64,000 bases of DNA from Candidatus Micrarchaeota archaeon (GCA_022627495.1 JAKEGJ010000008.1:8212-72211), one strand, 5' to 3'. Counted from the stretch's first letter, positions 7,711-62,801 are shown. Notes: generated by a model from the sequence alone, not told the origin. Program-made: numbers and translations.

Positions 7711-9848
7711 AAAAGTATATAAATAAGGTATACCAATTATCTCCGATGACCTCCCATAAAGTCGTAGCGGCCCTATTGTTATTAATCGGCATATTCTCGG
7801 CTTTCAACCTGTCCGATTACATCTATCCGGAAGAGAAAAATGCCACGATATCCTTCACGAATTACACCGAAGGCGGTTTCGCCTACTCGATAGTCCGGAT
7901 TAACGGTGCCGATACGTTCCTGCTGAAAGGCGGCGAGCCGCTCACCGACCAGTCCGAAATCGAGTCCGCGATGTACTCGTATTACGTGAGGACCTACTAC
8001 CCCACTCCGGCGGAAATAGCCGAGCTCGAGGCTTTCATCAAGCAGTTCAACGACAGCAGGAACAACGGCTACGACTTCAAGAACAAGGAGGAATACGTCT
8101 GCCGCGACGACATTCTGCTTTCCAACGGCAAGATAACCATCTCGGGCGTCCCGGTCCGCTGCACGGACAACCAGTCCTGCCTGAAGAACGCGATGCTCCT
8201 GTTTTCGGTTTACGGCCAGGGCCTGGGCCTCGGCTCTCCCACGGTGATTATCGGGCCCCTTACCGAATTCACCCCCGCAAGCCTCAAGATGGACGGGCTT
8301 CTGGCGAATTACACGTACATGCTTTCAACGATGAACGACAGCAACGTGGTTGAAAACATCAACTACATCAAGGACACCTCCGGAGAGCTCAAGAACCTCT
8401 CGCTAACGGTGGAATCGACAATATTCCGCACCCCGCGGCTGAACGATTCTGTGGACCGGGCGGCCTGCCAGCTCAAGTGCTGGGCCATATGCCCCTCCTT
8501 CGACCTTGACCAGGCTGCGGCGGACGCAATCAAGACCAAATCCGCAGCGCTCGCTGCCAAGCTCGCCCCGCTAAGCGACTTCCAAGGCGCGTCTGATTCC
8601 ATCTACGACCGCACAGTGACGCGCATGGAACACGTCCGGCAGGACAACATGGCCACGTACTACGATGACGTCTTCGCCCCCCTCAACAAGACCGGCGCAA
8701 TGGCGATAGCGGATGCGGAAGAGGCCCTCGGCCGTGTCCAGAACAATAGCTTCGGGGCCAAGCTTGACAGCCTCAAGTCCCTGCACGCGACCATTCCAGA
8801 AGACATCTCCGCCCACCACTTCGACAACCTGGACGCGGACATTGGCGAATACTCAAACCTGACCGAAGAGGTAAGGGCAGGCACGGGAATACTGATGGGC
8901 GGCTACAACGCCACGCTGGAAGCGAAGAACCTCGAAAACTCGCTTCTCATAGTGCTTGAAAGCAAGGACCTCGACCCCGTATCGCTCCGCTCGCTCGAAC
9001 TGCTCAAAAACCAGACGTCGGACCTCGACGCCCAGTTCCGAGACGGGCTCAGCCTGGCTGAACTTGCGGCCCTCGAGTCAAACTACACTTCTCTGACTAA
9101 AATCGAGCAGGACCTCCTGAAAAGCGAGAGCGAGACGCCGGCAACGCGCGTCCTCCTGCTGTTCCGTGGCTTCGCCCGCAAGGTCAATTCCGGGATAGCC
9201 AGCGTGGCGGAGAAGACCGAGGTGGTGCCCCGCTCCGAGATTCCGGAGGGCCCGGCCACGCTCGGACTGTTCTCGCTCCTGGTGTTCCTGTCATTCTCAT
9301 CGATTGCCATGCTGGTCTTCCTCTACATCTTCTCCACGACCAGATTCACGATACCCAAGACCTCGCACATCCTGCTTGCGGCATTCCTGTGCGTTGTTGT
9401 GCTGCTTTTCGTATTCAGCTTCATGATGTACCTCTTCCTGGGAAAGACGTCCACTGATGCGACGCTGCCCGAATTCCTGGCCGATTTTGGCTCCCGCAAT
9501 TCCACATCCATTCTCGTGGACGTGAGGAACGCCTCGTTTTCGGATGCCAATGCCATGCGCATGTGCGCATCCACCCTGGCCTCATCCTTGGCGGAAAGCA
9601 ACAAGAGCTGGTCGCTCTACGTTCTGACGCCCAGCACCTGCACGAAGACAGACAGCAATGGCGGAAACGAGACGCTCGAGTCTTCCGAATGCCTCGGCGA
9701 AACCAGCAGCTCCGAATCATCCTTCCTGCTCGGGTATTCCCCGAAGAACGAGCCGCCGAAGTTCTCGGTGATATACCAGACACGCGCGGAAATCCGCTCC
9801 AATCTCGATTATTACGAATCATGCCCGCTTGTGGCTCTCTTCAGTTGA
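7707..9848 (+). CDS. large sequon-rich surface/membrane protein, hypothetical
   Basis: 713 aa. N-terminal TM/signal, about 19 N-x-S/T sequons, two TM segments near residue 520-580. The ATGA-type start overlaps the idsA stop. Confidence 0.6.
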   Translation: MKKYINKVYQLSPMTSHKVVAALLLLIGIFSAFNLSDYIYPEEKNATISFTNYTEGGFAYSIVRINGADTFLLKGGEPLTDQSEIESAMYSYYVRTYYPTPAEIAELEAFIKQFNDSRNNGYDFKNKEEYVCRDDILLSNGKITISGVPVRCTDNQSCLKNAMLLFSVYGQGLGLGSPTVIIGPLTEFTPASLKMDGLLANYTYMLSTMNDSNVVENINYIKDTSGELKNLSLTVESTIFRTPRLNDSVDRAACQLKCWAICPSFDLDQAAADAIKTKSAALAAKLAPLSDFQGASDSIYDRTVTRMEHVRQDNMATYYDDVFAPLNKTGAMAIADAEEALGRVQNNSFGAKLDSLKSLHATIPEDISAHHFDNLDADIGEYSNLTEEVRAGTGILMGGYNATLEAKNLENSLLIVLESKDLDPVSLRSLELLKNQTSDLDAQFRDGLSLAELAALESNYTSLTKIEQDLLKSESETPATRVLLLFRGFARKVNSGIASVAEKTEVVPRSEIPEGPATLGLFSLLVFLSFSSIAMLVFLYIFSTTRFTIPKTSHILLAAFLCVVVLLFVFSFMMYLFLGKTSTDATLPEFLADFGSRNSTSILVDVRNASFSDANAMRMCASTLASSLAESNKSWSLYVLTPSTCTKTDSNGGNETLESSECLGETSSSESSFLLGYSPKNEPPKFSVIYQTRAEIRSNLDYYESCPLVALFS

Positions 9849-16754: not shown

Positions 16755-18416
16755 CTACTTCTTTCTGGCCGCGAACTTCTGCCTCAGGAACCTGGTCCAG
16801 ACCTGCCATACGAGGATTATTATGAGCAGGACTCCTGCCGCGATATAAAGCGGATTAACCCCGCTCGCGTTAACGTTTATCTTCATGGTGGCGTCGTTGA
16901 AGCCGATTTTCTTCACCGTGATGACATACTCCCCGGGCGATGCTATGCTCGTGGTATAATTCTTGTCGGACATTATCGCCGCGCCGTCGCCGAACGATAT
17001 GTTGAACCTGTCCACGGTGGAGCCGTCATCGCCATCGTTGACATACACCGTGAAATTCCTGCCTTCAATCGGTTCAGGCGATACTGCAAGCACCAGGTCG
17101 CTCAAGGGCGCGGCCGAGTCGTGGTTTATACTGACGCTCGTGTATGCGGGGCCGCTTTCGCTTCCACCTGCGTCGGCCACCTGGCATGATATGACGTTGA
17201 GCCCGGGCGCGAGCATCGCCTTCGGGTTGATGTAGAATATCCAGCCGTCATCGGTTGTGTTCGCCTGCATCCATTCCCCCGAATTCACCTGGACGAGCAC
17301 AGTGGCGCCGCCGGCTTCGGAGACGTGCTTGCCTGTCACGACAAGCTCCTTGAGGCCTGTAATCGCCCCCTCGGGCGGGCTTGTTATCGAGCATGCCCTC
17401 TCGGTGCTGTATGCGTATACCTTGCCGTCGTCAGAGCCGAAAATGACCTTGTTCTGGTAGAAAAGCGGGCTTCCGACCGAAGCCGTCGACGACCCCTTCC
17501 ACACGATTTCCCCGGTTTCGGTTTCTATCGCGTAGATGCTCTTGTCGGTCCCGCCGGCGAAGACGACCGTTCTTCCGCCCATCAGGCCCGATTCAGGCTG
17601 GGTCTGGACCGCCAGCTGCGTCCTTGCCGCCCACCGTACAAATCCGTCGCCGCTGTCTACCGCATATATGCTTCCGTCGTTGCTGCCGAAATACACGACG
17701 CCCGCTTGGACGAGAGGGGTGCCTACAACCCAGTTGCGCGTGCGAACCGCCCAGACATCGCCGCCTGTGGCCGTGAAGAACGCGTGCATCTTGTCATCGA
17801 GAGCGCCGGCGTAGACGACGGTGCCTTCGATAGTGGGCCGGGAAAGCCAGAACGAGCCTTCATCCAGCTGGGCCTTCCACGGCGTTTGCCCGGTTTCGCT
17901 CTGGCGAATGAGCTGGCCGCCGCTTCCGTAAATCACATAATCCGCGCCTGCAGCCGGGGGGCTGAGAACCGAGTCGTTGAATGCCGCTATTTTCGACCTC
18001 ACGGTGCCGTCCTTCTCCATGATGAATACGCCGCTGTTTGCCGTGACGAAAAGCTCCCTGGCGTTCACCGCTATCCCGTATATGCGGGAGACGTTGTATG
18101 CCGAGACGTTGAGGTTGGTCTCCCACTGTTTGGCTCCGTTGGCCCCCAGCTTTACCACCTTTCCTGAACTGGTCGAGAGGTAAATCGCGTTATCCGCGGA
18201 AATCAGCTCATTCGGCCTCTTGCCGACTGCAGTCTGCCACCTGCGGACTCCTGTGGCGGGATCCAGCCCGTAGACGATGCCGTCATCGGATGCGACGGCG
18301 ACCGCTCCCTGGTAAATCACGGGCTTGCTGCTCACCGCGCCGTCGCTGGTGAACTCCCATACGAGTGATGCGTTCGAGACCGCCAATACCAGTAGAAGGA
18401 GGAGCGCGTGTCTCAT
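16755..18416 (-). CDS. secreted PQQ-like beta-propeller repeat protein with Ig/PKD-like region and C-terminal TM anchor
   Basis: Signal peptide MRHALLLLLVLAVSNA. Repeated ..G.VYA.D..TG...W.. blades. C-terminal hydrophobic segment plus a basic tail. Confidence 0.7.
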   Translation of the reverse strand: MRHALLLLLVLAVSNASLVWEFTSDGAVSSKPVIYQGAVAVASDDGIVYGLDPATGVRRWQTAVGKRPNELISADNAIYLSTSSGKVVKLGANGAKQWETNLNVSAYNVSRIYGIAVNARELFVTANSGVFIMEKDGTVRSKIAAFNDSVLSPPAAGADYVIYGSGGQLIRQSETGQTPWKAQLDEGSFWLSRPTIEGTVVYAGALDDKMHAFFTATGGDVWAVRTRNWVVGTPLVQAGVVYFGSNDGSIYAVDSGDGFVRWAARTQLAVQTQPESGLMGGRTVVFAGGTDKSIYAIETETGEIVWKGSSTASVGSPLFYQNKVIFGSDDGKVYAYSTERACSITSPPEGAITGLKELVVTGKHVSEAGGATVLVQVNSGEWMQANTTDDGWIFYINPKAMLAPGLNVISCQVADAGGSESGPAYTSVSINHDSAAPLSDLVLAVSPEPIEGRNFTVYVNDGDDGSTVDRFNISFGDGAAIMSDKNYTTSIASPGEYVITVKKIGFNDATMKINVNASGVNPLYIAAGVLLIIILVWQVWTRFLRQKFAARKK

Positions 18417-19043: not shown

Positions 19044-19781
19044 ATGGATGACGACTTGGCCAGGACTTTCAAGTATGCGCAGGAATTCTACCTAAAGAGG
19101 CTCGGCCTCATCATAGTCTTTTCCGTGCCGTTCATACTCGCGTTCCTGGTGCCGGTCCTGGTTCCCGCGCCCACGTATCTGGCCCTTGGCGGGGTATTTC
19201 TCAGGACAGGCTCGCTCCCGGAGCTCTCCCTCCTGGACATAATAATCACGTCCATCGCCTACGCCTTCGCGATGTTCATCATGGGCGACACGCTCGTGAA
19301 CATCAACATCATCATCCGCTCGAAAAGGACGCTGACATCCATCAGGCACGAAGTGATCAGCGCGATGGGCACATACGCCATGAGGATATTCTATATCTCC
19401 ACCATGTTCCTGCTAATCATGTTCATCCTCCAGCTGATTACTTACGACAACCCGTTCCAGTCCTGGATTTACCCGCTCGCAACCCTTGTCCTCTCATCCC
19501 TGCTCTTCTTCGTGCCTCCGGCTGTCGTGATAGACAATTCCGACACGCCGACCGCCATCCGCCGCTCGGTTGCGATGGCCCTGCAGAACCCGCATTTCGT
19601 GCTTCTCTGGACAATCCTTCTCCTTCTGTCGGTCTCGGCAGTAAAAATCGCGGCGGATTTCGTCTTCTCCAGCCCGTTCTCCGGCTTCTTCGTTCTGCTT
19701 GTGAACTGCCTTCTCATCCTGCCGTTCTTCACCGTGCTCCAGACGCAGATGTACATGGAGAGGTACCCGCTGGCAAGGTAA
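19044..19781 (+). CDS. hypothetical polytopic membrane protein
   Basis: 245 aa with about 6 hydrophobic segments. Confidence 0.5.
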   Translation: MDDDLARTFKYAQEFYLKRLGLIIVFSVPFILAFLVPVLVPAPTYLALGGVFLRTGSLPELSLLDIIITSIAYAFAMFIMGDTLVNINIIIRSKRTLTSIRHEVISAMGTYAMRIFYISTMFLLIMFILQLITYDNPFQSWIYPLATLVLSSLLFFVPPAVVIDNSDTPTAIRRSVAMALQNPHFVLLWTILLLLSVSAVKIAADFVFSSPFSGFFVLLVNCLLILPFFTVLQTQMYMERYPLAR

Positions 19782-19785
19782 TCCG

Positions 19786-20775
19786 ATGGACAAGTCTAAG
19801 ACCGAATCGCGCAAGAAAGACCACGTGGAGCTTGTGGTATCAAAGGGCGCGCAATACGCGAGGACCACCGGGCTTGAGCGGATGGACTTCATCCACAACG
19901 CGCTTCCTGAGGTTTCCATGGATTCGGTCGACCTTTCCGTTGAATTCCTCGGAAAAACCCTCCGGTATCCGATTCTGATAACCGGGATGACTGGCGGGTA
20001 TGGCGATGCGGAAGGCATAAACCGGAGCCTTGCCCAGGCCGCGCAGAAATACGGCCTCGCCTTCGGCGTCGGCTCTCAGCGCGCGATGGTTGAGAAGCCG
20101 GAGCTTGCGAAGACGTACCGGGTCCGGGACGTCGCTCCAGGCGTGCCGATACTCGCGAACATCGGCGCCTACCAGCTCAAGAAATACTCTTTAAGCCAGG
20201 TCGAATCCCTTGTCAGCGCAATCGAAGCGGACGCACTGGCCATACATCTGAATGCCCTCCAGGAAGTCATTCAGGGCGAGGGCGACACGGATTTTTCCGG
20301 CGTCCTCAATGCCATAGGAAGGACATGCGAAAAGCTCTCCGTTCCTGTCGTGGTCAAGGAGACCGGCGCAGGCATCAGCCAGGACGTGGCCATCAAGCTG
20401 AAGAGCGCGGGAGTGAAATATCTTGATGTCGCCGGCGCCGGCGGCACATCCTGGAGCAAGGTGGAATACCTCCGCACGGACGCTGTGCCCGGGTTCGAGG
20501 ACTGGGGCATACCGACTGCGGAGTCCATCATCCAGTGCAGGGGCGTCCTCCCCATGATTGCGAGCGGCGGTATCCGCAACGGTATAGACGGGGCAAAATG
20601 CATCGCACTCGGCGCCGATATGTGCGGCGCCGCATATCCGTTCATCCGCGCCCTTAGGGAGCATTCGCTTGACGGCTATATCGAGACGTTCCAGAATCAG
20701 ATGCGGATGTGCGCCTTCCTGACCGGCTCCCGCACGCACGCGGATTTGAAGAAGGCCAAGCTCATTTTCAGGTGA
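19786..20775 (+). CDS. fni: type 2 isopentenyl-diphosphate delta-isomerase (FMN-dependent)
   Basis: N-terminal ..RKKDHVEL.., ITGMTGG, GVGSQRA and a TIM-barrel-like pattern. Confidence 0.88.
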   Translation: MDKSKTESRKKDHVELVVSKGAQYARTTGLERMDFIHNALPEVSMDSVDLSVEFLGKTLRYPILITGMTGGYGDAEGINRSLAQAAQKYGLAFGVGSQRAMVEKPELAKTYRVRDVAPGVPILANIGAYQLKKYSLSQVESLVSAIEADALAIHLNALQEVIQGEGDTDFSGVLNAIGRTCEKLSVPVVVKETGAGISQDVAIKLKSAGVKYLDVAGAGGTSWSKVEYLRTDAVPGFEDWGIPTAESIIQCRGVLPMIASGGIRNGIDGAKCIALGADMCGAAYPFIRALREHSLDGYIETFQNQMRMCAFLTGSRTHADLKKAKLIFR

Positions 20776-20984
20776 ATGCCCTACTGCCGCCGTGAAACCG
20801 GACAAGCAGCCCCCTGATTTTTCGAAATTCGGAACATTTTTGTGACATATGTTTATAAATCATCAATTCCTACAACCACTTGCGACCAGGGTTTCCGAAA
20901 GGTCAGACGTGAGTCCAGTGCATATGAGTGTGTTACAAAATGGAAAAACATATATTTAAAAGGGGTTTTGACCATAATACTACT

Positions 20985-22418
20985 ATGGCAACCACACGTT
21001 ACCTTCTTGGGGCTGCTTCAAAGGCAGTCCAGCCCAAATCCTCTCCTTTCCACCTCCCGTTCTCGCCCCAGGTAGAGCCCCTGCAGCTCCGCAAACAGGA
21101 CGAGCTTTCCATACTATCCCCGGAAATACAATTCATGGCCATGCAGGCCCGGGAACACTATGTCGCCCTGGGGGCCGAGGACATCTACAAGCACGTATAC
21201 CAGGTGCTTAGGGCCGCGGTCCGGGGAAAGCTGATACTTCCCTCGACAAACGGCGCGGACCCGTTCTCGAAACAGGTAGCCGAACTCATACTTTACCACT
21301 CGCTCGATTCGGTGAGCCACATCCCGAACCAGCCATTCATACCCGGCTTTGAAAAAAGGTTCCTGCTCCAGAACCGCTTCAAGAAGCTCGACAGCTGCTC
21401 TGGCGAGCGCTCGAATGCCTACAACCAGCTGCTGAACGACTGCTCCATCGACCTCACAGACCTCCTGGTGGTGCTGTATGCCAGAATAGCGGACATGATG
21501 GCCATGCACCTGCCCGGCACGGTCAAGGCCGCATCGACCAAGATGCCAGGCATATTCCCGATGCACAACGATTGGGAAGAGGTCAAGAAGTCCTGGGCAT
21601 GGCCGATGCTCAACATATACTGCCCGATAGCAGACTGGGGAAGCCTGACGACCGCCTACCGCGAGATGAGGGACAATGCGGTCGCCTACCTTTACCCCCG
21701 GGAAGTCGCCCAGCTCTCCGGCCGCGTAAGGGGGCTGATGCCCGCGCTCCAGAATACCGGGAAGATTCTCGATTCGGTCCTTTCCGACATGTCGACCACG
21801 CTCGGCATCCGGGTGCTGGTGGCAGACGACAACGACTCGATGTCGGCCGGATTATCCCAGCTGGACGACCGGACCGTCATCGTTCGGAAAAGGCCGTTCA
21901 AAGGTGAAGGCGGGCTGATATACAAGGCCATCAAGAAGGATATCTCCGTCGACATGGTCCACGACTGGGCCGGCGCCACGATAATCACGGAGAACGAGGA
22001 CCTTCTATACAAGGTAGTCTCGTACCTCTATGCCGGCGGCATTCAATCTGCGGCCCGGGCGAACGGAGTCCGCGACCTTCTGACGCTGCCCCCGGTCGAT
22101 TATGTCAGCAGCCCAAAACCCGTCACCCTCTACCAAAGCATACACATAGACACGGTGAGCCGCGACCCGCGCATGGTCCCGCTGGAGATAATCGTTCGCA
22201 CTGCGGCCATGCACAGGAATGCCGACATCGGAACTGCCGGCCATGAGGTGTACAAGCTGTGCCCGCTCCACAACGGGGAGCGCGCACGCTTCATGCAGAG
22301 GCTGGCCGAGATTCAATCCATCGTGCAGCCCTATGCCTGCCGCATGCCGTTCCAGCTTGTATCCGGAATATACATGCCCCTTGGCGCCGACCAGACCGGG
22401 AACCGCCTCGCTGCCTGA
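20985..22418 (+). CDS. RelA/SpoT-homologue-like protein 1 (degenerate HD region + synthetase-like nucleotidyltransferase domain)
   Basis: Motifs VRKRPFKGEGGLIYKAIKK / HDWAGATIIT / LYQSIHID / PLEIIVRTAAMHRNADIGTAGHEVYK. The ORF opens at a GTG at 20928. The ATG at 20985 lies about 25-30 nt after the TATA-like ATATATTTAAAA (20951-20962). Confidence 0.6.
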   Translation: MATTRYLLGAASKAVQPKSSPFHLPFSPQVEPLQLRKQDELSILSPEIQFMAMQAREHYVALGAEDIYKHVYQVLRAAVRGKLILPSTNGADPFSKQVAELILYHSLDSVSHIPNQPFIPGFEKRFLLQNRFKKLDSCSGERSNAYNQLLNDCSIDLTDLLVVLYARIADMMAMHLPGTVKAASTKMPGIFPMHNDWEEVKKSWAWPMLNIYCPIADWGSLTTAYREMRDNAVAYLYPREVAQLSGRVRGLMPALQNTGKILDSVLSDMSTTLGIRVLVADDNDSMSAGLSQLDDRTVIVRKRPFKGEGGLIYKAIKKDISVDMVHDWAGATIITENEDLLYKVVSYLYAGGIQSAARANGVRDLLTLPPVDYVSSPKPVTLYQSIHIDTVSRDPRMVPLEIIVRTAAMHRNADIGTAGHEVYKLCPLHNGERARFMQRLAEIQSIVQPYACRMPFQLVSGIYMPLGADQTGNRLAA

Positions 22419-22584
22419 GCATGCCTCAGGGCGCGCAGGGTTAGGGCGGTTGCAATCCTTTTTTTAATCTTTTTAGACACATCCCCATCATCCGCCTGCC
22501 AGCTTGCCTCACGGACCGCCGGAGTTATATTGTGGTGGAAATAGGAAGAATGTAAGTATTATAAATTGTTTTACCAAGTGTTTA

Positions 22585-24060
22585 ATGATGGCGATAATAT
22601 CCACGCTGCCAAGCGCGCAGTCCGACATTCAGCGCATGCGCCATTTCTACAAGAGCATGGGCCAGATCAACCAGTACAACCATTCCCATGCCGTCTACAC
22701 CAAAGCGACGCGGTTCAACATCATCGATGAAGGGATAATCCGCGATGAGGGCAAGGATCCTTCCCTGCGCATCAACCACCTTCTGCGGCGCAGGCTCGCG
22801 TTCCTGCACGTGGTGGATTCCGGCAAGATAAAAGACTTCCCGGGCCTCCTTCCGCGAGGAATCGCGGATGACGCGCTCCTTCAAGAGCTGGACGTTTTCG
22901 AGAAGCTTACCGCCCTCGAACGCCGCGGCGCTCCCAAATCGGAATTCCTTGCCCTGCTGAATAACGGCAGGCGCCCGCTCGCCCCGCTCATCAAGATACC
23001 CGACTGCTCGCTGACCCACGACACGGAAGAACAGCTCGCCGGCTTCATCGCCAACGGCGTCCCTTCGATAATCCGGCAGTATGAATCGGTTGGGGAAGCC
23101 CGCCTTGCCATGAAGCTGGACCTCAAAGCGGCCGAGAAGCTATGGGCGCCCCTTGCAGGATTCTACGGCTACCAGGAGCTTTCCGGCGACATCTTCCAGC
23201 AGTCCTACCGGGTGAACCATCCGGAGATACACGACCGTGTAATTGCCAACATGGCCGACCCGGTTACGAATGAGCGGATAGCCCGCACCTACCACCTGGC
23301 GAAAGTGGCCGCGCGGATGGTTGCGCGTGCCCTGGAATCCTACGGCGTGGAGGCAGAAGTGCCTGTACGGAAAGTGAAGCATCCGGGGAAGCAGATGGAA
23401 AAGGCGTACCGCTTCCTTCTCCAGGATTACGAAGCCACGCCCATCGACAGCCGCCTGTGCAGGAGCGAGTTCGTCACCAGCCGGGTTTCCAGCTTCGATT
23501 TCGGACGTTTCAACGACATGGTTGCCGTAAGGGCGATAATCTCGCGCTTCAACGGTATGGGCATCGACCAGCTCATAAAGGATTCGGGCCATGCAGTGGA
23601 GCCGGGGGTCGAAAACCGGCAGTTCGACCTCAATGAAATCGGCAGGCTCCTAGACGTCATCAGAATCCCGGCACTTAAAATCGCTGTCAAGGCCATAGCG
23701 GACGTGCTGACCTCGCTCTCCATCCTGCATCCCGAACCCATGGGGAGCTTCGCCTGCGGCGTCGAGTACAAAAAGAAACCAAACGGATACCACGGCTTCC
23801 ATTTCGACATACGGGCGCAGGGCAAGGGGGGCGCCATCCTTGTCCCGTTCGAATTCCAGCTTCGGACAAGCGAATGGCACTACATCTCCGAGCGCGGAGG
23901 CGCCGCGCACTTCCTGCTCAAGGGAGGCGACGAATCAGGCCCCATAGACGGAGAACTGATCGAGACGCTCGGCAACGGCTACCATGACCTGCTTTACGGG
24001 CCCGACCCATCCATGCCGCCAAGCAGCCGCATCTGCCCACCCTGCGGGAAAAGCGGCTGA
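22585..24060 (+). CDS. RelA/SpoT-homologue-like protein 2 (degenerate HD region + synthetase-like nucleotidyltransferase domain)
   Basis: Motifs VRKVKHPGKQMEKAYRFL / NDMVAVRAIIS / NGYHGFHFDI / PFEFQLRTSEWHYISERGGAAHFLLK. TATA-like TATTATAAATT at 22557-22567 sits about 20 nt before ATGATG at 22585. Confidence 0.65.
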   Translation: MMAIISTLPSAQSDIQRMRHFYKSMGQINQYNHSHAVYTKATRFNIIDEGIIRDEGKDPSLRINHLLRRRLAFLHVVDSGKIKDFPGLLPRGIADDALLQELDVFEKLTALERRGAPKSEFLALLNNGRRPLAPLIKIPDCSLTHDTEEQLAGFIANGVPSIIRQYESVGEARLAMKLDLKAAEKLWAPLAGFYGYQELSGDIFQQSYRVNHPEIHDRVIANMADPVTNERIARTYHLAKVAARMVARALESYGVEAEVPVRKVKHPGKQMEKAYRFLLQDYEATPIDSRLCRSEFVTSRVSSFDFGRFNDMVAVRAIISRFNGMGIDQLIKDSGHAVEPGVENRQFDLNEIGRLLDVIRIPALKIAVKAIADVLTSLSILHPEPMGSFACGVEYKKKPNGYHGFHFDIRAQGKGGAILVPFEFQLRTSEWHYISERGGAAHFLLKGGDESGPIDGELIETLGNGYHDLLYGPDPSMPPSSRICPPCGKSG

Positions 24061-24068
24061 ATGCATAA

Positions 24069-24533
24069 TCAGACCTCGCCGAATTCCGTCAGCCTGCTGA
24101 CGACGTTCAGCACCATGTTCGTATTCGTCTTCCGAACGCCTTCGGTGGCGAGTATCCTCTTCACCGTTGCGCTCAGCTCCCCCCTCGTCTTGCACATCAG
24201 GACCGCCAATGCGTCGTATTCGCCGGTGGTGTCCCAGACCGCGGCCACATGGGGAAGCTTCGCGACCTTCTCCTCTATCGCAATCAGGTTCTTTCCTGAC
24301 ATGCTGATCTCGACTATCGCCATGAATTCGAAACCGAGCTTGAGGTAGTTCACCCTCGCGCCGTAGCCTGTGATAAAGTCTTTCCTCTCAAGCGACTTTA
24401 TGCGCTCCACGAGGGCGGCCGGGGACAGGCCTATCTGCTTCGCGATATTGCGGTATGAGCGCCCTGAATCGGCGATAAGTTCGCGCATTATTCTGGCGTC
24501 CATTTCATCTATTTCCTGCGTCTTCTTGCTCAT
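24069..24533 (-). CDS. Lrp/AsnC-family transcriptional regulator
   Basis: HTH (..DARIMRELIADSGRSYRNIAKQIGLSPAALVERIKSLE..) plus a RAM/ACT-like C-terminal domain. Divergent from glnA. Confidence 0.85.
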   Translation of the reverse strand: MSKKTQEIDEMDARIMRELIADSGRSYRNIAKQIGLSPAALVERIKSLERKDFITGYGARVNYLKLGFEFMAIVEISMSGKNLIAIEEKVAKLPHVAAVWDTTGEYDALAVLMCKTRGELSATVKRILATEGVRKTNTNMVLNVVSRLTEFGEV

Positions 24534-24655
24534 AATTACGAACATTTGATGTTGATATTTATAAATCTGCCAGTATTTTGTTCTGTTTAAACGAATTTAA
24601 GCAATATTTTAATACCCTAACGCTCACAACGCTTCTAGGGGGCCGGGTGACTTGA

Positions 24656-26065
24656 ATGGATGCAAAATCAGCCAAAGCGCTTTCGGAAAAGGAAGGATTG
24701 GAGCTTGTCGACGTAAAATTCTCGGACCTCTTCGGCCAGTGGAAGCACTTCACGATGCCAAAGGACCTGCTGGATTTTTCTGAAAAGGACCGGCTGCCTT
24801 TTGACGGCTCGTCAATCCACGGCTTCAAGGAGATCCACGAAAGCGACATGGAGCTTGTCCCGGATTACGCCACTTCCTTTGTGGACCCGTTCGCGAGCAA
24901 CAGCCTGTCCATGATATGCGACGTATACGACCCGCACTGCAAGAAATTCTTCGACCGCGACTGCCGGACCATCGCCCGGAAAGCAGAGGCCTACCTGAAA
25001 ACCACCGGCATCGCAGACACGGCATATTTCGGCCCCGAGGCCGAATTCTTCGTGTTCGACGACCTGCGTTTCGACCAGAGCGAGAACTCCGGGTATTACT
25101 TCATCGACTCCGACGAGGGCATCTGGAACTCCGGAAACGGCGTGAAGCGAAACCTCGCATACCGCCCCCGGTTCAAAGATGGGTACATCCCGGTGCCGCC
25201 TAACGACGCCCTGCAGGAAGTGCGCACGGACATGATTCTGACCATGCGCAGGTGCGGATTGAAAATCGAAAAGCACCACCACGAGGTCGCCACCGCCGGC
25301 CAGTGCGAAATCGGAATCCGCTTCGACACGCTGACCCGGGCGGCGGACAATGTCATGATTTACAAATACATCGTGAAAAACATCGCGAGGAAGCACGGCA
25401 AGGTGGCGACGTTCATGCCCAAGCCCGTCTTCAACGACAACGGGTCCGGCATGCACTGCAACCAGAGCCTCTGGAAGGACGGTGCGAACCTGTTTGCGGG
25501 AGACGGCTATGCGGGCCTGAGCCAGACCGCGTTATACTATATCGGCGGCCTCATCGACCATGCCCACTCGCTCGCAGCAATACTCTCGCCGACCACAAAC
25601 TCGTATAAGCGCCTGGTCCCCGGTTTCGAAGCTCCGGTGAACCTCGCATACAGCCAGGCCAACCGCAGCGCCGCGGTGAGGATACCCCTGACTCCGGAAG
25701 GCAACACCTCGGCAAAACGGATAGAATACCGCCCTCCGGACCCAAGCTGCAACCCCTACCTCGGATTCGCCGCCATGGTGATGGCAGGTCTGGACGGAAT
25801 CCGGAAAAAAACCGACCCAGGCGAAGCTGTACGGGAGAATATCTACCACATGCCCAAGGACCGCTCGGCGAAAATCAAGAAACTCCCCCAAAGCCTGGCA
25901 GAGGCGATGTCGGAGCTGGAAAACGACCACGACTATCTGCTGCAGGGCGGCGTCTTCACAAAAGACGTCATCGAAACCTGGGTGGATTTCAAGCGCAACA
26001 AGGAAATCAGCCCGCTGAACCTTCGCCCCCATCCCTACGAATTCCACCTCTACCACGATGTGTGA
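24656..26065 (+). CDS. glnA: glutamine synthetase type I
   Basis: 469 aa. VDVKFSDLFGQWKHFT.., ..NGSGMHCNQSLW.., ..NSYKRLVPGFEAP.. motifs. Confidence 0.92.
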   Translation: MDAKSAKALSEKEGLELVDVKFSDLFGQWKHFTMPKDLLDFSEKDRLPFDGSSIHGFKEIHESDMELVPDYATSFVDPFASNSLSMICDVYDPHCKKFFDRDCRTIARKAEAYLKTTGIADTAYFGPEAEFFVFDDLRFDQSENSGYYFIDSDEGIWNSGNGVKRNLAYRPRFKDGYIPVPPNDALQEVRTDMILTMRRCGLKIEKHHHEVATAGQCEIGIRFDTLTRAADNVMIYKYIVKNIARKHGKVATFMPKPVFNDNGSGMHCNQSLWKDGANLFAGDGYAGLSQTALYYIGGLIDHAHSLAAILSPTTNSYKRLVPGFEAPVNLAYSQANRSAAVRIPLTPEGNTSAKRIEYRPPDPSCNPYLGFAAMVMAGLDGIRKKTDPGEAVRENIYHMPKDRSAKIKKLPQSLAEAMSELENDHDYLLQGGVFTKDVIETWVDFKRNKEISPLNLRPHPYEFHLYHDV

Positions 26066-61193: not shown

Positions 61194-62731
<1,538 letters not shown>

Positions 62732-62801
62732 AAAATTACTGAAGTCACATTCAGGAATTTGTGGAAGCAGTGTGCGAGTACGACGAAGCGAAAGCTTCGG
62801 T

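Follow-up and report, generated by a model that had tools for sequence, protein, structure and literature searches.

Which proteins do two adjacent genes of a Micrarchaeota genome encode, and do they act as one module or each on its own? The genes, ORF1 and ORF2 (open reading frames 1 and 2), lie in a 64,000-nt stretch of DNA (JAKEGJ010000008.1:8212-72211 of GCA_022627495.1, Candidatus Micrarchaeota; hereafter the window). Both are on the + strand within a slot that we write as fni-[RSH]-lrp-glnA, where RSH stands for RelA/SpoT homologue, and both have exact public matches from Candidatus Micrarchaeota archaeon that are annotated as hypothetical. A first-pass annotation had read them as a tandem pair of very divergent RSHs and suggested a toxin/antitoxin, anti-phage or obligate two-component module. 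The family assignment held, as both proteins exceed the Pfam cutoff and match Rel, RelA and SpoT over their full length in profile and Foldseek comparisons; the module was not supported. Each protein corresponds to the N-terminal, catalytic part of a long RSH and lacks the C-terminal half that senses the ribosome. With moderate confidence, we regard the two as separately transcribed, vertically inherited archaeal (Micrarchaeota/DPANN-type) RSH paralogues, most likely autonomous nucleotide pyrophosphokinases. This reading is carried by the fold, the architecture, the conserved catalytic residues, the synteny, the separate promoters with a terminator and the autonomy of each gene type.

Two long-RSH catalytic regions without a C-terminal half

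Pfam RelA_SpoT (PF04607, cutoff 27 bits) matched ORF1 with 41.8 bits and ORF2 with 28.7 bits. The ORF1 match covers residues 310-424 of the 477-aa protein (329-443 in the 496-aa GTG-start ORF that was scanned). The synthetase motifs quoted in the first-pass annotation were recovered in place, running from VRKRPFKG to HEVYK in ORF1 (nt ~21882-22256) and from VRKVKHPGK to FLLK in ORF2 (nt ~23365-23922), far beyond chance. The NCBIfam models for long RSHs matched the synthetase part only and stayed far under their cutoffs (TIGR00691, 49 and 24 bits versus 499). Sequence searches of the PDB returned only Rel, RelA and small alarmone synthetase (SAS) entries, and the matches included the helix between the two domains.

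Identity to the N-terminal regions of long Rel proteins is just 13-21%. Profiles were built from 29 ORF1 homologues (family 1) and 13 ORF2 homologues (family 2), and the N-terminal regions of 42 bacterial sequences served as the long-RSH reference. In hhalign, family 1 matched this reference with E 4.9e-28 over 366 columns (SpoT residues 4-386) and family 2 with E 4.9e-19 over 349 columns (SpoT residues 8-373). Both alignments take in the HD and the SYNTH domains. Against the single E. coli SpoT sequence only the linker and SYNTH aligned, and the HD region needed the 42-sequence profile.

AlphaFold2 models of ORF1 and ORF2 reached pLDDT 82.5 and 84.8 and pTM 0.81 and 0.84, respectively. Their best Foldseek matches were the HD and SYNTH domains of Rel from T. 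thermophilus, S. aureus, B. subtilis, M. tuberculosis and S. equisimilis, and RelA and SpoT were matched too. E values went down to 6e-10 (ORF1) and 4e-7 (ORF2), and the alignments of ~400-480 columns covered the whole target. SASs, CapRel and Tas1 scored orders of magnitude worse than Rel, RelA and SpoT.

The two proteins are barely similar to each other, as had been noticed before: the best BLASTP high-scoring segment pair has 28% identity over 57 aa. Their families align with E 1.9e-12 and 17% identity over 355 profile columns, N-terminal domain included, and by this comparison ORF1 and ORF2 are best described as distant full-length paralogues.

We found no Pfam or NCBIfam match to a TGS/ACT-type C-terminal region in either protein, and both end ~30-50 residues past the synthetase domain, so the earlier claim of a missing C-terminus stands. 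The ~250 N-terminal residues consist of an HD-fold domain and the long-RSH linker, which sets both proteins apart from single-domain SASs. In ORF1 the linker is the best-conserved block of family 1, with invariant columns between P207 and Y235.

The HD-like domain and the SYNTH active site

At the position of the hydrolase His-Asp dyad the proteins read H105-S106 (ORF1) and H74-V75 (ORF2), in register with H72-D73 of SpoT. The first-pass annotation had made this reading, and that of the linker helix, correctly. The dyad Asp is replaced by Ser or Val and the Glu-Asp (ED) pair is absent in both proteins; the dyad His is kept. Since the dyad and the ED pair are lost, the HD-like domain is probably not a canonical hydrolase of the guanosine tetra- and pentaphosphates, (p)ppGpp. 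Pfam HD_4 did not match the window proteins even at E<=10, nor ten outgroup relatives at E<=0.1. A canonical hydrolase was also not found elsewhere in the 64-kb window.

The annotation had further described this half as inactivated as in RelA, which is only partly right. Both the ED pair and the Asp of the dyad have indeed been lost, but three other residues are kept invariantly, unlike in E. coli RelA. The first HD His is invariant everywhere (H70 in ORF1, H34 in ORF2), and so is, in all archaeal groups, the Asp of the KLADRxHN-like helix (D170 and D139). The register of this Asp is ambiguous: it falls on SpoT N143 by MAFFT and the family-1 (A1) profile, and on SpoT D139 by HMMER, the family-2 (A2) profile and the A1-A2 alignment. 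Because the first His, the dyad His and the helix Asp are invariant in all archaeal groups, the HD-like domain is, to judge from these columns, constrained and not simply decayed. Relative to long Rel, an insertion of ~25 aa follows the KLAD-like helix.

In the HD domain of ORF2, the family-invariant residues are H34, H74, D77, D139 and T143-H144-D145-T146-E147. The T-H-D-T-E string stands a few residues past the conserved KIPD Asp (ORF2 residues 138-147, window 22999-23028). At this position a semi-conserved 'vHDpxT' occurs in family 1 and the outgroup, but ORF1 of the window reads MHLPGT. The THDTE string could be a relocated His-Asp pair of the HD-like domain.

For the synthetase half, we surveyed residues in an 87-sequence alignment of family 1, the classes 2a, 2b and 2c of the second gene in the slot (ORF2 belongs to 2a; the classes are described below), the single-copy outgroup, bacterial long RSHs and E. 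coli RelA and SpoT. In SpoT numbering, no archaeal group departs from the Mg2+ ligands D259 and E319, from the phosphate-binding K238 and K246 or from Y303 and H307 of the acceptor site. K299 and H338 likewise do not vary outside class 2c. R323/T324 are largely retained, although some slot-2 classes have Lys or Asn/Ser instead, and R264, N301 and Q321 are additionally kept in class 2a alone.

ORF2 has the canonical set R261/K262, K264, K272, D310, R315, K397, N399, Y401, H405, E422, Q424, R426, T427 and H441. Its acceptor loop consists of K397, N399, G400, Y401 and H405, and R261/K262 stand at the first stacking-Arg position. The canonical motifs and an insertion in SYNTH had been noted before, but there are two insertions (~25 and ~45 aa) and not one of ~40 aa.

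ORF1 keeps K306, K314, D327 (Mg), K378, Y383, H387, E401 (Mg), R405, T406 and H420. It is non-canonical at P304 and T332, which replace the first and the second adenine-stacking Arg, at T381 for Asn, at I403 for the Gln of ExQxRT and at G310 for the Ser of RxKxxxSxxxK. T332 and I403 are the deviations that the first-pass annotation had pointed out. Two arginines, the equivalents of SpoT R236 and R264, hold the donor adenine between them in SaRelP and FaRel2 (PMC5794853, PMC11782079). Both phosphate-binding lysines of the donor-ATP site are present in both window proteins; at the two stacking-Arg positions ORF2 has R261/K262 and R315, and ORF1 has P304 and T332. The single-copy outgroup and class 2b share the ORF1-like state, with Ile at Q321 and no Arg at 264. 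Which copy would be the degenerate one of an active/degenerate pair is not straightforward: the motifs of ORF2 are canonical but its slot evolves fast, and single-copy relatives commonly have a donor site like that of ORF1.

From these residues, both proteins would be Mg2+-dependent pyrophosphokinases that transfer the beta,gamma-pyrophosphate of a nucleoside triphosphate to the 3'-OH of an acceptor, a purine nucleotide that stacks on the conserved Tyr. For ORF2, in which every canonical ATP-donor and guanine-acceptor residue is present, the predicted product is an alarmone of the (p)ppGpp type. ORF1 is probably not dead but works with a donor pocket that has been remodelled or with a different substrate preference, since its metal, phosphate and acceptor residues are kept and the same state is found in single-copy relatives.

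The closest known systems are the N-terminal regions of long Rel (6S2T/6S2U from T. thermophilus, 7OIW from S. aureus, 1VJ7/24IO of RelSeq, 6YXA from B. subtilis), which gave the best structural and profile matches. They share with the archaeal pair the two-domain fold, the domain order, the linker motif, the Mg2+ Asp/Glu, the phosphate lysines and the acceptor Tyr/His. Unlike long Rel, the pair lacks the TGS/helical/zinc-finger domain (ZFD)/ACT half, the dyad Asp and the ED pair and carries the insertion that follows the KLAD-like helix; neither of the adenine-stacking Arg nor the ExQxRT Gln is present in ORF1, and ORF2 has the two SYNTH insertions. The monofunctional E. coli RelA is similar in that the catalytic HD dyad is lost and SYNTH is intact, so that it is synthetase-only by motif. 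However, its dyad reads F-P and most other HD ligands are gone, whereas the archaeal proteins keep H...H...D, and it has a full ribosome-binding C-terminal domain. RelQ and RelP (SAS1/SAS2) are ribosome-independent, lack the C-terminal domain and have the same SYNTH motifs, and they appeared as secondary Foldseek and hidden Markov model (HMM) matches. They differ as single-domain homotetramers of ~200-250 aa without HD fold or long-RSH linker, and they keep both stacking Arg (PMC5794853). The toxic SASs (toxSAS), CapRel and Tas1 also have a stand-alone RSH SYNTH fold and evolve fast, and some of these toxins use non-guanine acceptors. Their structural likeness to the archaeal pair is weak (Foldseek E ~1e-3 to 5e-2, no PADLOC hit). 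They occur patchily in compact toxin-antitoxin operons, pseudo-ZFD antitoxin fusions or secretion clusters, in contrast to the fixed synteny and separate units of the archaeal genes.

Transcription units, synteny and evolution

The mechanical ORF bounds are 20928-22418 (GTG at 20928) and 22504-24060 (TTG at 22504). The true starts are ATG 20985 (MATTRY) for ORF1 and ATG 22588 (MAIIS) for ORF2. The G+C content of both genes is typical of the window, and neither has frameshifts or stops. An N-terminal extension of ORF1 from 20940, with the conserved peptide 'MEKHIFKRGxxHN', was considered and rejected. The block 20928-20984 is near-invariant at all codon positions and has an in-frame stop in one related locus (L004), so we read it as a promoter and noncoding. 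It contains a TATA-like core (20950-20961) ~30 nt 5' of the ATG, as in a B recognition element (BRE)/TATA-type promoter. Since the core is only ~30 nt before the ATG, the ORF1 mRNA is probably leaderless.

A conserved T-run follows the ORF1 stop and is likely an archaeal oligo-T terminator. The TATA-like box of ORF2 lies ~27 nt before its ATG, and a TTTAAA-type box stands at the equivalent place in L001, L002 and L005. Spacers between paired RSH genes are 170-210 nt. Because of their own conserved promoters and the conserved terminator-like T-run between them, ORF1 and ORF2 are to be read as separate transcription units. This agrees with the first-pass annotation, which had given each gene its own TATA-like box and had named the neighbours fni and lrp-glnA. 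The features are collected in Table 1.

Table 1. Coordinates of the RSH genes, their domains and control elements and their neighbours in the window
Feature	Position	Strand	Basis and remarks
fni, type-2 flavin mononucleotide (FMN)-dependent isopentenyl diphosphate (IPP) isomerase	19786..20775	+	ORF; orthologues 70-84% identical in all syntenic loci, with Pfam FMN_dh; upstream neighbour
ORF1 promoter block (GTGTGTTACAAAATGGAAAAACATATATTTAAAAGG...CATAAT...)	20928..20984	+	DNA near-invariant in 8 species, third codon positions included
ORF1	20985..22418	+	477 aa; family-1 RSH without C-terminal domain; identical to NCBI 'hypothetical protein L0Y65_02030'
ORF1 HD-fold (pseudo-hydrolase) domain	21102..21569	+	residues ~40-195; all-helical in model; aligned to SpoT 4-148
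ORF1 inter-domain helical linker (PMLNIYCPIADWG..AYREMRDNAVAYLYP)	21573..21803	+	aligned to Rel/SpoT 'YSPLAHRLG...LYP'
ORF1 SYNTH domain	21810..22256	+	Pfam PF04607 and residue mapping
T-run (TTTTTTTAATCTTTTT) after ORF1 stop	22459..22474	+	conserved in window, L001, L002, L005
ORF2 TATA-like box (AGTATTATAAATT)	22555..22567	+	
ORF2	22588..24060	+	490 aa; class-2a RSH without C-terminal domain; identical to NCBI 'hypothetical protein L0Y65_02035'
ORF2 HD-fold domain	22615..23046	+	residues ~10-153; model and profile alignment
ORF2 inter-domain helical linker (EKLWAPLAGFYGYQELSGDIF..)	23089..23340	+	aligned to RelA/SpoT linker helices
ORF2 SYNTH domain	23347..23922	+	Pfam and residue mapping; two insertions
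lrp, AsnC/Lrp-type regulator	24069..24545	-	ORF; orthologues with Pfam HTH_AsnC-type/AsnC_trans_reg; convergent downstream neighbour
glnA, glutamine synthetase	24656..26065	+	ORF; orthologues with Pfam Gln-synt_N/Gln-synt_C; divergent from lrp

The ~57-nt block 5' of ORF1 is better conserved over eight species than the coding sequence and is longer than a TATA box alone would be, which points to a further site where a regulator may bind. We found no second copy of the block elsewhere in the window, and a search for a regulatory motif common to the ORF1 promoter and lrp/glnA or the rest of the window found none.

All close homologues come from Micrarchaeota-type metagenome-assembled genomes (MAGs). 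GTDB species representatives were scanned with family-1 peptides, which biases the sample to genomes carrying family 1, and at least 11 loci were obtained. All 11 have the order L11(-)/transmembrane (TM) protein/fni/ORF1-type/slot-2 gene/lrp(-)/glnA. Overall, the slot is kept in 17 related loci (18 with the window) and the pair in the window and 11 species. The slot holds a single gene in five loci: a family-1-like protein is the sole occupant in L017, and class-2a proteins are in L018-L021, Ca. Bilamarchaeum included. Each type is thus autonomous, occurring in the same slot without the other. Single genes also follow fni in L014 and L015, or lie among other archaeal housekeeping genes in L016, and the relative P0058 adjoins the peptidyl-tRNA hydrolase gene PTH2.

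In the 11 loci, slot 2 is always occupied by a + strand gene of 430-570 aa, which falls into one of three classes. Class 2a is ORF2-like (31-73% identical to ORF2), and class 2b is ~25% identical to ORF2 and Pfam-positive; both score 33-44 bits with PF04607. Class 2c has no Pfam match. Its profile aligns collinearly with that of family 1 over 330 columns, with the motifs in register but a borderline score (E 1.7e-4, probability 49%, from a comparison made before five further members enlarged the alignment to 7 sequences), and it is likely paralogous to family 1. Several of its substrate residues are changed (Pro for N301, His for Q321, Gly for H338) and its metal ligands are kept. In L011 (MAG MFD05942.bin.2.360), the family-1 gene at 7950-9450 is broken into at least four reading-frame fragments, whereas the neighbours fni, class-2c RSH, lrp, glnA, L11 and the TM gene are intact and the close relative L003 keeps an intact family-1 gene. 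The L011 copy is a probable pseudogene, although long-read assembly errors are possible.

An exhaustive HMM search of 1.8 billion representatives gave 8 family-1 clusters and, with matches along the entire profile, ~20 other proteins of 390-570 aa. The ten relatives scanned with Pfam (P0057-P0064, P0067, P0068) are all RelA_SpoT-positive and none has HD_4. Ordinary long RSHs of 700-760 aa match in SYNTH only. The outgroup proteins P0057-P0068 were judged archaeal from gene context only. The genome with the single-copy relative P0061, a distant archaeal one, has a 910-aa eRF1 gene with an intein (L014:3360-6092 and L015:483-3215), and this intein contains a LAGLIDADG homing-endonuclease domain.

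In a bootstrapped, unrooted distance tree, the archaeal groups stand apart from bacterial long RSHs with 100/100 support, and each group has 83-100; the bacterial sample is biased to the sequences nearest family 1. Between the window and L001, identity is 94% for L11, 79% for fni, 78% for lrp, 74% for ORF2 and 53% for ORF1. Across loci that share the synteny, identity of glnA falls to 38%. The RSH pair is then best taken as vertically inherited, chromosomal paralogues. The simplest history has an ancient tandem duplication within the fixed slot, after which the copies diverged rapidly, with losses in particular lineages.

Every related locus also keeps two more genes near the slot, one for a secreted or anchored pyrroloquinoline quinone (PQQ)-like beta-propeller protein of 553 aa (16755-18416, -) and one for a 245-aa multi-pass membrane protein without a Pfam domain (TM245; 19044-19781, +). 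Both are parts of the conserved syntenic block L11 - TM245 - fni - RSH. Farther away, the window has a complete archaeal 16S rRNA gene at 61194-62732 (+; Rfam RF01959, 1394 bits). The 1.27 kb beyond it gave no 23S match and ARAGORN detected no tRNA gene in the 64 kb, so the rRNA genes appear unlinked.

Competing explanations and biological meaning

HD and pseudo-HD domains regulate intramolecularly in Rel and RelA. The HD-like domain of the archaeal proteins would more likely be allosteric or regulatory too, acting on SYNTH within the molecule through the conserved helical linker. Ribosome sensing is unlikely because the C-terminal domain is missing, and control would be transcriptional and intramolecular (HD-like to SYNTH) rather than ribosome-dependent. 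The adjacent lrp-glnA genes hint at nutrient control, by guilt of association.

Several observations weigh against two autonomous, vertically inherited pyrophosphokinases. (p)ppGpp has so far gone undetected in archaea, and the enzyme activity of ORF1 and ORF2 is a prediction from sequence. ORF1 lacks both donor-adenine arginines of every characterised RSH synthetase, so its ATP binding may be impaired. The acceptor is not deducible from the sequence, since toxSAS that target tRNA have the conserved acceptor Tyr as well. With no canonical hydrolase in either protein or the window, turnover of the product is left unexplained. Both RSH genes evolve much faster than their neighbours, which could mean relaxed constraint or conflict, and inter-group nodes of the unrooted distance tree are weak (67/100 for 2a+2b).

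Could the two proteins instead work together? Where both genes are present, they may form a heteromer of one catalytic subunit and one pseudo- or semi-active tuner, and we consider such an enzyme with a regulatory paralogue unlikely, though the strongest of the alternatives. Sub-functionalisation after duplication would account for the retention of the tandem in the window and 11 species, and the active sites look complementary, canonical at the donor site of ORF2 and remodelled in ORF1. The slot-2 gene evolves very fast, and the loss of substrate residues with kept metal ligands in class 2c is typical of regulatory paralogues; the domain-coupling linker is also the most conserved part of family 1. 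However, either type is found alone in the same slot in at least five loci, the probable family-1 pseudogene of L011 lies beside an intact class 2c gene and ORF1 and ORF2 are separate transcription units. We give a still lower probability to one or both proteins being pyrophosphokinases with a non-alarmone or non-guanine acceptor, such as (pp)pApp, the CCA end of tRNA as for FaRel2/CapRel or another 3'-OH, in housekeeping or growth control. This would concern ORF1 especially, which shares with the outgroup and class 2b the non-canonical set of T381 for Asn, I403 for Gln and no stacking Arg. It is also favoured by RSH-fold enzymes that use adenine nucleotides or tRNA (PMC11782079), by the failure to detect (p)ppGpp in archaea and by the position of P0058 beside PTH2. 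ORF2, however, keeps K397-x-N399-G-Y401-x-x-x-H405 as guanine-specific long RSHs do, CapRel and Tas1 fall far below Rel in Foldseek, and no toxSAS-type N-terminal tRNA-binding extension or pseudo-zinc-finger was recognised.

The toxin-antitoxin or anti-phage module, with a toxic synthetase encoded by one gene and its partner or antidote by the other, is disfavoured and in our view very improbable. The genes are adjacent, on the same strand and both fast-evolving, and stand-alone RSH synthetases do include toxSAS and CapRel (PMC7229694, PMC11782079). Nevertheless, PADLOC gave no match for any of the four paralogue classes, and the housekeeping synteny is strict over the deep divergence seen in glnA (down to 38%), without a mobile-element or defence-island context. 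The spacers, the conserved terminator and the own promoters do not resemble a compact or overlapping bicistron. The nearest structural neighbours are long RSHs, the proteins carry an HD-like domain, and each type occurs alone. The slot kept in at least 17 loci and the L011 pseudogene beside an intact second gene also speak against the toxin/partner or obligate two-component module that had been proposed.

Two separately transcribed, autonomous RSH paralogues remain the explanation that we prefer, and it can be set against the literature. A survey of DPANN genomes found RelA/SpoT homologues in Diapherotrites (69%), Woesearchaeota (42%), Pacearchaeota (21%) and Nanoarchaeota (19%), with Micrarchaeota not listed. 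It attributed these genes to transfer from Bacteria and described neither domain architecture nor tandem paralogues (PMC8407392). The single-copy relatives P0057-P0067 (390-570 aa, HD-like and SYNTH domains, no C-terminal domain) may overlap with that set. An RSH census reported no long RSH in archaea, only sporadic SASs and small alarmone hydrolases acquired by transfer (PMC3153485), and the main text of its 2020 update does not discuss archaea. According to reviews up to 2023, (p)ppGpp is unfound in any archaeon, RSHs are rare and long RSHs absent (PMC3153485, PMC8646023, PMC10249747). Our literature search found no paper describing the fni-[RSH]-lrp-glnA locus. What appears new is an archaeal RSH lineage without the C-terminal domain and with a pseudo-HD domain, tandem paralogues and a remodelled donor site; the RSH superfamily itself is known.

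A chromosomally fixed, promoter-equipped RSH locus under purifying selection throughout a group of Micrarchaeota differs from sporadic bacterial import. It allows two 'hypothetical protein' annotations to be improved and provides named genes and residues for testing whether archaea make alarmone-type nucleotides. It also bears on how RSHs are controlled without a C-terminal domain and on how a donor pocket can change with the catalytic core kept. More tentatively, and as a possibility that we rate clearly below the preferred reading, the pair may belong to a native, vertically inherited, ribosome-independent DPANN alarmone system of [HD-like]-[SYNTH] enzymes without the C-terminal domain. The ORF1-type donor pocket would then be re-engineered for a different donor or acceptor nucleotide, and the HD-like domain (H...H...D, with THDTE in ORF2) would act either as a hydrolase of a non-canonical kind or as an allosteric sensor of nucleotides. 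If this is true, the system would count as the first functional signalling pathway of the (p)ppNpp type in Archaea, located beside the lrp-glnA nutrient-response genes.

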